Shown piece by piece: positions 6,331-39,689 of a stretch of 64,000 bases of DNA; positions within the stretch are counted from its first letter, which is position 1; every line of letters begins with the position of its first letter. The DNA is from Escherichia coli (GTDB taxonomy: Bacteria; Pseudomonadota; Gammaproteobacteria; Enterobacterales; Enterobacteriaceae): the NCBI RefSeq assembly GCF_003334255.1, contig NZ_QOWU01000006.1. One strand, given 5' to 3'. The notes beneath the pieces are model-generated. The model was not told the DNA's origin, made no database searches, and saw nothing but the letters and a program-made list of their open reading frames with translations. The translations under genes were made by a program, and so were the position numbers.

Positions 6331-6480
6331 GACTCCTCCAGTGAGAAAATAGAGCAAAAAGATAAGTATAGATGCTGGAGGAGGGGCGATTTTAAATGAG
6401 AGGAATCTGGTGTGCCTCCCTTTCGGGTGAAAGGGAGGAAGGGATATTAAGCAGGTTGCTGACAACGTGCGGGCTTTTTT

Positions 6481-6585
6481 GCCGGATGCGGCGTGAACGC
6501 CTTATCCGTCCTACAAGTTCATGCAATTTTAATAAGTTGCCAGATATCCTGTAGGCCTGATAAGCGTAGCGCATCAGGCAATGTG
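6481..6585. repeat. REP/BIME cluster 3' of glnQ
   Basis: GCCGGATGCGGCGTGAACGCCTTATCCGTCCTAC ... TGTAGGCCTGATAAGCGTAGCGCATCAGGCA; canonical REP palindromic units. Confidence 0.9.
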
Positions 6586-6590
6586 TCTTA

Positions 6591-7313
6591 TTAAGAGACG
6601 TGCTGCAAAAATTCCTGCAAGCGCTGGCTCGGCGGGTTCTTGATCAACACCTGCGGATTGCCATCTTCCGCAATCCGGCCTTTGTCGATAAAGATCAGCC
6701 GCGAAGCTACTTTCTCGGCAAAACCGATTTCGTGGGTCACGATCACCATCGTCATCCCTTCTTCAGCCAGATCCTGCATAACCTTCAGCACTTCATGGCG
6801 CAGTTCCGGGTCAAGAGCGGAAGTCGGTTCATCAAACAGCATCATTTTCGGCTTCACCGCCAGCGCGCGGGCAATCGCCACACGCTGCTGTTGACCACCA
6901 GAAAGTTCGGAAGGGTAGTGATGTGCACGTTCTGCCAGACCGACTTTCGCCAGCAGCTCACGTGCCAGTTTTTCCGCCTCTTCTTTGTTCGCGCCACGCA
7001 CGCGTAGCGGGCCAAACATGACGTTTTCCAGCGCTGTCAGATGCGGGAAGAGGTAAAACTGCTGGAACACCATACCTGCTTCCTGGCGAATCAGGCGCTC
7101 GTCAACTTTCGGATCGTTAACCTTCAGGCCATCGACAATCAGATCGCCGGAGGTGATTTCTTCCAGTTTGTTGATGCAGCGCAGCAGGGTCGATTTACCG
7201 GAACCGGACGGCCCGATAATCACCACGACTTCGCCCTGGGCAATGTTCAAATCGATATTGTGCAGCACCTGGGTTGGGCCAAAGTGCTTGGAGACGTTTT
7301 TAAATTCAATCAC
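6591..7313 (-). CDS. glnQ: Glutamine ABC transporter ATP-binding protein GlnQ
   Basis: 240 aa; Walker [13 protein letters not shown] signature LSGGQQQRV, Walker [13 protein letters not shown]. Confidence 0.95.
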
Positions 7314-7969
7314 AGGATTTTCATCCTTCTTTCCAGACGACGCAGAATAAAGCTCAGCACCAGGGTAATAATCAGATAGAACACCGCCACGGCGCTCCAG
7401 ATCTCAAGGGCGCGGAAGTTACCGGCAATAATTTCTTGCCCCTGACGGGTCAGTTCCGCCACGCCGATCACAATAAACAGCGAGGTGTCTTTAATGCTGA
7501 TGATCCACTGGTTACCCAGCGGCGGCAGCATACGACGCAGTGCCAGCGGTAAAATGACGTAGCGAATGGTTTCCCAACGTGAAAGACCGAGCGCCAGTCC
7601 TGCTTCACGAAAACCTTTGTGGATAGACAGCACCGCACCACGCGTGATTTCCGCAATATACGCGCCGGAGTTGATCATGATGGTGACCACCGCCGCAGTA
7701 AATGGGTCGATGCGTAAGTCGTTAAACGCCATCGGCAGGGCGAAATAAATAAACATCACCTGGACGACGATAGGTGTGCCGCGGATCACTTCAATAAAGA
7801 CCAGCGCGACGTGGTTGGCTATCCAACCTCCGAAGGTGCGTGCAAAACCTGCCAGCAATCCGATTACCAGACCGCCTGCCAGACCGAGGACCGAAATCCA
7901 CAGGGTCATTTTGGCACCTTCAATCAGAAGCGGAATGGCAGGCCAGATGGCACTCCAGTCAAACTGCAT
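7310..7969 (-). CDS. glnP: Glutamine ABC transporter permease GlnP
   Basis: 219-aa polytopic membrane protein with binding-protein-dependent permease signature; stop overlaps glnQ start (translational coupling). Confidence 0.95.
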
Positions 7970-8053
7970 ATGTTGTTCCTGTTACCGTGGTGTAAATAAT
8001 CAAATTCAGGGTAATTAATGGCCCCGGAGCGGGTTTGCGCCCCTCACCCTAAT

Positions 8054-8074
8054 CCTCTCCCCATAGGGGAGAGG
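8054..8074 (-). other. GC-rich intercistronic palindrome between glnH and glnP (CCTCTCCCCATAGGGGAGAGG)
   Basis: Near-perfect inverted repeat inside the 138-bp glnH-glnP spacer; could form a stable stem-loop in the glnHPQ transcript (partial terminator or mRNA stabiliser). Confidence 0.5.
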
Positions 8075-8107
8075 GAACTGCCAGTGCGTTTTACAGGTGT
8101 AGCGTTA

Positions 8108-8869
<762 letters not shown>

Positions 8870-8904
8870 CTATCCACGGGACGATCCCCTGCGTGACATT
8901 CACA

Positions 8905-8924
8905 TATATGAAAAAATCGTGCCA
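8905..8924 (-). promoter_or_regulatory. Sigma-54 promoter glnHp2 (-24 TGGCAC / -12 TTTCA)
   Basis: Minus strand reads CTGGCACGATTTTTTCATAT about 45-65 nt upstream of the glnH ATG; -24 GG element is perfect, -12 deviates from TTGCA. Confidence 0.6.
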
Positions 8925-8997
8925 GTTTTGCAACTCCTTGATTTTTCGAGATGCGGCAAAAACGTGATGCACGATTTATAGGGCAATACCCTGAAGA

Positions 8998-9027
8998 TGC
9001 ACCATTCTGGGGCACCAATCTGGTGCG
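8998..9027. promoter_or_regulatory. Tandem NtrC (NRI) binding sites upstream of glnHp2
   Basis: TGCACCATTCTGGGGCACCAATCTGGTGCGC contains GCACCA-N3-TGGTGC (9012-9026), a good match to the NtrC palindrome, overlapped by a second half-matching copy; about 90 bp upstream of the sigma-54 -24 element. Confidence 0.6.
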
Positions 9028-9257
9028 CTAAAATTGTGCACTCAACACAGTGATTATTTAGCGTAAAACCTGATGAAAAAACAATCTTTATGTAACGATT
9101 GTGTGATGATGTGGATACAAAAAATTTACTTAATCAGCTGGAGATAGCAGATGGATGCACTAAATAAGTGCGTTGAGGTGGGCTGCAAAACAAAACGGCC
9201 TCCTGTCAGGAAGCCGCTTTTATCGGGTACTAAAGTTCTGCACCATCAGCGATGGAT

Positions 9258-9905
<648 letters not shown>

Positions 9906-10021: not shown

Positions 10022-10051
10022 TTCTGCATGGTTATGCATAACCATGCAGAA
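10022..10051 (-). terminator. Perfect 30-bp palindrome immediately 3' of rhtA (probable rhtA terminator/insulator)
   Basis: TTCTGCATGGTTATGCATAACCATGCAGAA is its own reverse complement (15+15, no spacer), 8 nt past the rhtA stop; a moderately U-rich stretch follows on the minus strand. Confidence 0.55.
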
Positions 10052-10059
10052 ATGTAAAT

Positions 10060-10947
10060 TTAATTAATGTCTAATTCTTTTATTTTGCTCTCTTTGCGTA
10101 CTGTCAGCGTAGACCCCATTGAAGCGGCGATGATAGCGCCGAGCGCCAGTAGCTGTATGGGTGTCAGTGTTTCTCCGAGGAAAATCATCCCGGAAACGGC
10201 AGCCAGCGCCGGTTCCATGCTCATCAGCGTACCAAATGTCCGTGTTGGCAAACGGGTGAGGGCAATTATTTCCAGCGAATAAGGCAGAGCGGTCGAGAGA
10301 ATAGCGACAGCCAGACCCAATGGAATAACCGACCAGTGCCAGAGTGCTTCACCAGCCTGAAGCGCTCCAATTGGCACGAAAATTAACGCTGCAATCAACG
10401 AACCAATTGCCACCGTCGCAGGGCCATGTTCCGCTCCTGCGCGTTGCCCACTTAAAATGTAAATAGCCCAACAAGCCCCGGCCCCCAGTGCCAGCGCACA
10501 GCCGGTTAAATCGACATGGGAAACGTCTTGCCCCAGCGGTAGCAGGAACCACAGACCAAGAACCGCCAGCACAACCCAGACGAAATCTACCGGGCGACGA
10601 GAAGAGAACAGCGCCACCGCCAGTGGTCCGGTGAACTCCAGCGCCACCGCAATACCCAGCGGTACTGTCTGAATAGAAAGATAAAAAAGATAATTCATCC
10701 CACCCAGCGAAACGCCGTAAAACAACAGCGGTAACCGTTGCTCTTTGGCAAAGCGCAGTCGCCATGGCTTAAAGAACGCGATGAGGATCAGCGTTCCTAA
10801 TGCCAGACGCAGCGCAGTGACACCCGGTGCGCCCACCAGAGGAAAAAGTGACTTAGCTAACGAGGCTCCACCCTGAATAGACGCCATGGCAACGAGCAAT
10901 ATGACTATTGGTAACCAGACCGGCATTTTACGTAATGAACCAGGCAT
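10060..10947 (-). CDS. rhtA: Threonine/homoserine exporter RhtA (DMT/EamA family)
   Basis: 295-aa ten-TM protein starting MPGSLRKMPVWLPIVILLV; ATG at 10947. Track ORF begins 4 codons upstream. Confidence 0.88.
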   Translation of the reverse strand: MPGSLRKMPVWLPIVILLVAMASIQGGASLAKSLFPLVGAPGVTALRLALGTLILIAFFKPWRLRFAKEQRLPLLFYGVSLGGMNYLFYLSIQTVPLGIAVALEFTGPLAVALFSSRRPVDFVWVVLAVLGLWFLLPLGQDVSHVDLTGCALALGAGACWAIYILSGQRAGAEHGPATVAIGSLIAALIFVPIGALQAGEALWHWSVIPLGLAVAILSTALPYSLEIIALTRLPTRTFGTLMSMEPALAAVSGMIFLGETLTPIQLLALGAIIAASMGSTLTVRKESKIKELDIN

Positions 10948-39579: not shown

Positions 39580-39689
39580 AAACTAAGGGGGAGAAAGCGT
39601 CTCCCCCTTCATGTTTAAGTTTTTGTAAAAATGAATTTGTTATCTCCTCCACTGACTACGCTTTAAGCCAGAGTCAATCCGGAGGCGTT

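Follow-up and report, generated by a model that had tools for sequence, protein, structure and literature searches.

A BoxC repeat hairpin in the glnH-glnP spacer of Escherichia coli adjoins a mapped RNA 3' end and may stabilise glnH mRNA

REP elements located between cistrons stabilise upstream mRNA in the malEFG and hisJQMP operons. Newbury, Higgins and colleagues reportedly described REP/BIME sequences as intercistronic mRNA stabilisers at malE-malF and hisJ-hisQ in 1987. At both junctions a stable GC-rich hairpin that lacks a U-tract and has an RNA 3' end at its base lies between the gene for the periplasmic binding protein of an ABC importer and the genes for its membrane components, and the same arrangement is found between glnH and glnP in Escherichia coli. 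The glnH-glnP element differs in coming from an unrelated family, without the REP consensus or GGCCTAC tail, and stabilisation of glnH is what we infer from its context. More generally, Dar and Sorek (2018, PMC6061677) showed that stable stem-loops lacking a U-tract mark steady-state 3' ends trimmed by exonucleases and give protection from PNPase and RNase II. The glnH-glnP hairpin shares with these the missing U-tract and a steady-state 3' end directly downstream; they were reported chiefly from the ends of Rho-terminated units, whereas this hairpin lies inside an operon, with no Rho region listed nearby.

The family to which the hairpin belongs, named BoxC, PIT or TMECO, is said to have been treated by Bachellier et al. 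and by Hoyne and Maher. Catalogues describe BoxC as roughly 56 bp long and present in some 32 copies that share a stem-loop, its function being unassigned (PMC2267715, PMC5172473). In the 30 years or so since it was first listed, it has been studied only as a DNA triplex motif, and purine-motif triplexes are reported not to form in RNA (PMC4666352). As that paper summarises them, earlier PIT/TMECO studies found no role in gene expression; they assayed promoter and terminator activity, and the summary mentions no test of mRNA stability. The property of BoxC that is relevant at glnH-glnP appears instead to be the RNA hairpin.

The glnH-glnP palindrome and the BoxC repeat

The DNA analysed here, referred to as the window, is a stretch of 64,000 nucleotides from E. 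coli, in which the glnHPQ operon lies on the minus strand with dps upstream. The operon is of the E. coli K-12 type: a 341-nt locus query is 100% identical to K-12 strains, and MG1655 coordinates equal window coordinates plus 839150. The features of the locus are as follows.

8108-8854, minus strand: glnH, upstream cistron, encoding the periplasmic glutamine-binding protein; its mRNA ends at the hairpin
7970-8107: glnH-glnP spacer, 138 nt
8038-8090, minus strand: full BoxC unit, its G-rich strand being the mRNA strand, AACGCACTGGCAGTT-CCCTCTCCC-CTATG-GGGAGAGGA-TTA-GGGTGAGGG-GCG
8054-8074, minus strand: RNA hairpin, with its 5' arm at 8074-8066, loop at 8065-8063 (UAU) and 3' arm at 8062-8054
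8040-8049, minus strand: third G-block of BoxC, GGGTGAGGGG
8020-8048, minus strand: second hairpin predicted by folding, GGU..GGGGCG-CAAACC-CGCUCC..GCC, locus-specific and outside the repeat, using the third G-block
7992-8019, minus strand: AU-rich spacer stretch AUUAAUUACCCUGAAUUUGAUUAUUUAC, predicted to be unpaired in the fold
7974-7991, minus strand: pairing site of the sRNA GlnZ, CCACGGUAACAGGAACAA, overlapping the glnP Shine-Dalgarno region, placed by published compensatory mutations and by duplex prediction
7310-7969, minus strand: glnP, permease, downstream cistron
6591-7313, minus strand: glnQ, ATPase, last cistron

The palindrome at 8054-8074 reads CCTCTCCCCATAGGGGAGAGG on the plus strand and is a perfect 9-bp inverted repeat with a 3-nt loop (CCTCTCCCC-ATA-GGGGAGAGG); the mRNA strand folds into a 9-bp hairpin of -18.3 kcal/mol. 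No comparable palindrome match arose in 100 dinucleotide shuffles of the window. With G or C at 7 of 9 arm positions, it is tied for GC-richest among the window's perfect 9-bp palindromes, which (9-bp stem, 3-8 nt loop) number 17 matches at about 10 loci, compared with an average of 2.3 and at most 6 in shuffles. None of 100 shuffles folds as well as the exact spacer (z = -2.8), and a somewhat longer stretch of 156 nt gives z = -1.7. The window's other perfect 9-bp-stem palindromes, at 10024-10049, 11833-11858, 18416-18440, 39585-39609, 53393-53417 and elsewhere, are presumably terminators or REP-type hairpins.

Sequence comparison identifies the palindrome as the stem-loop of a BoxC copy that has decayed slightly. 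A covariance model was built from 11 aligned BoxC copies at ten other MG1655 loci, the glnH-glnP copy being excluded, and it matched the window at 8038-8090 on the minus strand over positions 1-53 of 53, with 44.9 bits and an E value of 6.6e-13. This is the sole BoxC unit that the model found within the 64-kb window; the model's other matches were the same hairpin on the opposite strand and an insignificant one at 10226-10265 (E 0.21). Read on the mRNA strand, GCACTGGCAGTT-CCCTCTCCC-CTATG-GGGAGAGGA-TTA-GGGTGAGGG-G has the three-block BoxC layout, and the locus thus shares with the family both the full 53-nt unit and the type A order CCCTCNCCC-loop-GGGNGAGGG-TTA-GGGNGAGGG. The strict TMECO consensus is CCCTCNCCC N3-6 GGGNGAGGG N3 GGGNGAGGG (Holder et al. 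2015, PMC4666352). The glnH-glnP copy departs from this three-block pattern in block 2, which is GGGAGAGGA with its last G replaced by A, and this substitution explains both its failure to match and its absence from the published 23 TMECOs (PMC4666352). The ortholog in strain E69, a divergent Escherichia, does fit the strict pattern, so that the K-12 copy is a decayed member of the family. Its stem carries a T where most BoxC copies have a G that produces a G.A mismatch; the glnH-glnP hairpin therefore pairs throughout and exceeds in stability the other K-12 BoxC hairpins examined (-18.3 versus -15.7 kcal/mol).

BoxC is abundant across the species. A 65-nt element query was present in all 5,426 complete E. 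coli genomes, at 52,582 places in total and a median of 11 per genome. All ten sampled copies are intergenic, and the glnH-glnP copy lies about 34 nt past the stop codon, as do most others. A further copy occurs in the pstA-pstB spacer of pstSCAB, another ABC-transporter operon (MG1655 3908495-3908530), 19 nt past the pstA stop codon; here the mRNA carries the C-rich strand, and Term-seq showed no 3' end at this copy.

Neither stem arm differs among seven E. coli alleles and the E69 lineage, while the loop varies, being TAT, TCT or GCC among the seven; three of these seven have a G>A substitution or lack one nucleotide in the third G-block. Invariant arms together with a varying loop and third block fit a constraint on an RNA hairpin better than one on a three-strand DNA triplex, the sample being small and an invariant stem giving no covariation. 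An intrastrand purine-motif DNA triplex would be weakened by the G>A substitution of block 2 and by the block 3 variants. The second predicted hairpin (8020-8048) shows one compensatory change, G-C to A-U, in the E69 lineage. An RNA G-quadruplex is a possible additional structure in GGGGAGAGGAUUAGGGUGAGGGG.

The preliminary description of this DNA had singled out the palindrome with exact coordinates, and that part stands, none of 100 shuffles having produced its equal. The GC-rich flanks that it mentioned are real as well, 8040-8049 being the third G-block of the repeat. It was right that the canonical REP sequence does not match, as neither the REP consensus nor a GGCCTAC-type tail occurs in the 8054-8074 element, and it did not recognise the element as BoxC. 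Its treatment of the palindrome as an operon-specific element has to be given up in view of the match to other BoxC copies, and the genome-wide search for a palindrome family that it suggested does recover a family, which is the known BoxC repeat. Rfam models searched over the element at a permissive threshold gave chance-level matches only (Antizyme_FSE and whalefall-1, both E>1), so that no curated RNA family covers it. The idea that BoxC had inserted into an older REP-like hairpin, raised by the resemblance of the left flank GCACTGGCAG to GCCCGGCAG, was rejected, since other BoxC copies include the same flank in their repeat unit.

RNA 3' ends and GlnZ in the glnHPQ transcript

Term-seq places an RNA 3' end at MG1655 847200 on the minus strand in three growth conditions (Adams et al. 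2021, PMC7815308, Supplementary file 1), with scores of 30331.8 (LB, OD 0.4), 130459 (LB, OD 2.0) and 42295.2 (M63). This is window position 8050, 4 nt past the foot of the hairpin (...GGGGAGAGG-AUUA; the printed context runs ...CCCTCTCCCCTATGGGGAGAGGATTA up to the end and GGGTGAGGGG beyond it). Adams et al. classed the end as 'orphan' because it is 58 nt from the glnH stop codon (PMC7815308). The third G-block lies downstream of it and is accordingly missing from the stable glnH RNA, and the second predicted hairpin, also downstream, belongs to the glnPQ-proximal fragment. The operon-distal end at 845561 was called in M63 only, where it scored 29,295 versus 42,295 at 847200 (PMC7815308). The published SMRT-Cappable-seq supplements contain no entry for glnH. 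A consensus promoter scan of 6400-9400 returned no sigma-70-like promoter, leaving an internal glnP promoter unsupported.

Several other BoxC copies, in either orientation, have a Term-seq end just beyond the hairpin, namely those with ends at ppiC 3959467, lldD 3781065, 4231270 and 632098 (+11). By contrast, called 3' ends are absent at most BoxC copies, and at all canonical type-A copies on the G-rich strand; the effect is therefore either not universal or dependent on expression level. Confinement of the ends to copies with a perfect stem was considered and rejected, since those at 4231270 and 632098 carry the mismatch.

Other ends and termination regions were mapped along the operon. Upstream, a Term-seq 3' end at MG1655 848057 (window 8907, minus strand; LB, OD 2.0) falls inside the glnH 5' UTR, 53 nt upstream of the start codon, and a Rho-termination region at MG1655 848222 (window 9072) lies between dps and glnH; these may represent premature termination or a leader fragment of glnHPQ transcripts. 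Downstream of glnQ, a BIME at 6411-6575 (minus strand) consists of two classic REP elements, TGCCTGATGCGCTACGCTTATCAGGCCTAC and GTAGGACGGATAAGGCGTTCACGCCGCATCCGGCA, and the REP pair is followed by a perfect palindrome, CCTCCCTTTC-ACCC-GAAAGGGAGG, at 6415-6438. The 845561 end, at window 6411, sits at the foot of this palindrome, with a Rho region 10 nt further on. A weak Rfam naRNA4 match at 6450-6511 reflects the REP sequence after glnQ and not the glnH-glnP spacer.

The same spacer carries the target of GlnZ, an sRNA derived from the glnA 3' UTR that represses glnP and whose pairing has been proven by compensatory mutations (PMC9731577; bioRxiv 10.1101/2022.04.01.486790). Duplex prediction, using the glnA 3' UTR of an STEC strain rather than K-12 (found with tblastn of GlnA against plasmids), puts the site at 7991-7974, and the published C-18G mutation maps to window position 7987. 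The site corresponds to the 3' segment of the spacer, CACCACGGTAACAGGAAC, and is kept in nearly all orthologous species. GlnZ pairing at the glnP ribosome-binding site is a separate, conserved regulation, distinct from the BoxC hairpin. A pulse of GlnZ in Salmonella lowered glnP and glnQ more than 4-fold, glnH not being in that list, which suggests that the glnH segment acts there as a separately stable RNA. A 1.0-Mb E. coli entry named 'plasmid pSTEC639_1' (CP061233.1), which carries glnA with its GlnZ-type 3' UTR, probably represents part of a chromosome misfiled as a plasmid.

The intercistronic slot across Enterobacterales

The comparison covers 80 orthologous glnP loci, one genome per species, with the spacer extracted from 78; the E69 ortholog, read directly, and the window complete the set of 80 spacers. 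Their lengths range from 75 to 466 nt. Every one of the 80 contains a hairpin of -15.6 to -30 kcal/mol, and the z score of the whole-spacer minimum free energy averages -2.74 with none above 0, the species being related and the values not independent. The hairpins fall into the following classes, which overlap in that the CAGAGG spacers of Klebsiella and Raoultella also fit the REP-like pattern.

39 spacers: REP-like GCCCGG...CCGGGC palindrome (Citrobacter, Salmonella, Enterobacter, E. albertii, E. whittamii and L002, a genome labelled E. coli)
24 spacers: GGGGCG...CGCCCC hairpin with a T-run, terminator-shaped (Kosakonia, Buttiauxella, Cedecea, Leclercia)
7 spacers: terminal CAGAGG...CCTCTG hairpin with a T-run (Klebsiella, Raoultella)
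2 spacers: BoxC (the window and E69)
13 spacers: other hairpins (various taxa, every one with a hairpin)

The slot thus holds a terminator-like hairpin, a REP or a BoxC element depending on the lineage, as if selection favoured having some stable hairpin there and not a particular sequence. REP-like hairpins occupy the slot in E. albertii, Citrobacter, Salmonella and Enterobacter. In E69 an intact canonical BoxC stands at the same site. Within E. coli the BoxC allele is fixed, 5,401 of 5,426 genomes covering at least 80% of the locus query. The REP-type allele of L002 was considered as a variant segregating within E. coli and rejected, because coverage of it reaches 80% in none of the 5,426 genomes. 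One E. coli match of low coverage was inspected and proved to be an IS26 insertion.

Several spacers and their surroundings deserve separate mention. In Enterobacter sp. kpr-6 an inverted pair of BoxC copies (L053:2882-2964; 48.3 and 32.9 bits) directly follows glnQ, and the glnH-glnP spacer holds a terminator-like GGGGCG hairpin instead of BoxC. Unusually long glnH-glnP spacers occur in Serratia sp. H1w (L079, 232 nt) and Intestinirhabdus alba (L031, 466 nt). The insert in the Serratia spacer (..CCCCAGGAGCTTAC..GTAAGTGACTGGGGTGAG..) may be an ERIC/IRU element, which would be a further sign that the spacer accepts dispersed repeats.

Explanations for the hairpin and their meaning

We consider it probable, with moderate confidence, that the BoxC hairpin acts as a barrier to 3' exonucleases and so makes glnH mRNA more stable, leaving a glnH-only RNA after read-through. 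RNA polymerase would transcribe through the element, as follows from glnPQ having no promoter of their own, and the 9-bp G+C-rich hairpin would fold in the transcript. The untranslated, AU-rich distal spacer or the glnPQ part would then be cut or degraded, and the stretch at 7992-8019 could, in such a scheme, be the entry site for endonucleolytic decay of the glnPQ part. PNPase and RNase II would trim in the 3'-to-5' direction and stall at the hairpin, so that a stable glnH-only RNA ending in AUUA at window position 8050 would remain. The lifetime of glnH mRNA would thereby be uncoupled from that of glnPQ, favouring an excess of binding protein, and GlnZ at the glnP ribosome-binding site would supply a second, regulated layer of control. 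As in stabilisers of the malE-malF type, the hairpin combines an intercistronic position, a stability of -18.3 kcal/mol and a Term-seq end at +4. One observation runs counter to the simple form of this scheme: the hairpin at 8020-8048 should also slow exonucleases down, but the mapped 3' end is upstream of that hairpin, a position for which the simple model does not account.

A Term-seq end looks the same whether it arises by termination or by processing, and two forms of termination therefore compete with exonuclease stalling. The hairpin might halt a fraction of RNA polymerases, perhaps with the help of NusA/NusG or of pausing on the G-rich block, and so reduce the number of glnPQ transcripts. 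Like intrinsic terminators and attenuators, it is a GC-rich hairpin past a stop codon with an RNA 3' end adjoining it, and at least 24 of the 80 spacers, including those of Kosakonia, Buttiauxella and Cedecea, pair their hairpin with a T-run in the canonical shape of an intrinsic terminator, such that attenuation at the slot may be the ancestral solution. Unlike them, the BoxC hairpin is followed not by a T-run but by AUUAGGGUGAGGGG, the consensus terminator scan called no site at it, and its 3' end is at +4; for the intrinsic terminator of dps the Term-seq table gives an end at +7, within the U-tract. Earlier studies cited in PMC4666352 moreover found that PIT/BoxC neither terminates transcription nor affects RNA polymerase. 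Partial termination by the hairpin itself is therefore unlikely in E. coli. Rho-dependent termination in the spacer or early glnP, especially when GlnZ blocks translation, followed by trimming back to the hairpin, would let polarity set the ratio of glnH to glnPQ. It would draw on the 138 nt of untranslated spacer RNA, on the repression of glnP translation by GlnZ and on the fact that Rho-terminated RNAs are typically trimmed to hairpins without a U-tract (PMC6061677). The bicyclomycin dataset, a published table with its own thresholds, lists no Rho region in the spacer or glnP, the nearest being at 845551 and 848222 (PMC7815308, Supplementary file 2). Directly beyond the hairpin the sequence is rich in G, unlike the C-rich, G-poor make-up of a rut site, and LB, in which GlnZ is reportedly low, gives a strong 3' end; we regard this route as very improbable.

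A different kind of explanation holds that BoxC is a neutral or selfish insertion in a tolerant spacer, that DNA-level properties such as triplex formation or local instability are what matter, and that the 3' end is incidental, with a negligible effect on the GlnH:GlnPQ ratio. BoxC is indeed dispersed, lacks a demonstrated function and is associated with locally variable DNA; the spacer takes many different repeats across taxa, long insertions included; and GlnZ already provides discoordinate control. Set against this, a strong hairpin persists in all 80 spacers despite the turnover of sequence families, and E. coli is fixed for the BoxC allele, with the REP-type one in none of its genomes. 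The sampled alleles, moreover, keep the stem while block 2 and the triplex-forming third block have decayed, whereas selection on a DNA triplex would be expected to give the opposite pattern. We hold neutral insertion to be rather doubtful, and exonuclease blocking by the BoxC hairpin remains the reading that we prefer.

The preliminary description had proposed that the stem-loop either partially terminates transcription or protects upstream mRNA. The second half fits the Term-seq end at +4 and the ubiquity of a hairpin in the slot, and the first is disfavoured by the missing T-run, by the position of that end and by the lack of PIT terminator activity. RNA 3' ends at the palindrome, on which that proposal had been staked beforehand, are present and reproducible, 4 nt past the hairpin in all three conditions. 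GlnZ pairing at the glnP ribosome-binding site, the proven instance of discoordinate control in this spacer, had escaped its notice.

In kind, the element is modest: an ordinary intercistronic stabiliser hairpin in an ABC-importer operon, of which the new aspects are BoxC in that role and the replacement of one another in the slot by unrelated families. The principle is well known from REP elements, and the advance is accordingly incremental. For annotation, the lesson is that a comparison with dispersed-repeat families should come first whenever a GC-rich palindrome turns up within an operon.

On the preferred reading, one copy of BoxC would gain a concrete job at the RNA level, and an 'orphan' Term-seq 3' end in a much-studied operon would be explained. 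Two layers of discoordinate control would also be set apart in glnHPQ, a constitutive protection of glnH mRNA and a GlnZ-regulated repression of glnP. The comparative picture amounts to a natural experiment on one intercistronic position. More tentatively, and as a possibility to which we give somewhat less than even weight, BoxC elements may act at the RNA level as exonuclease-blocking, 3'-end-defining hairpins that are interchangeable with REP and terminator-type hairpins, with glnH-glnP as a conserved 'hairpin slot' that three or more unrelated families have filled in turn as the enterobacteria evolved, and that selection for discoordinate expression of the binding protein has maintained.
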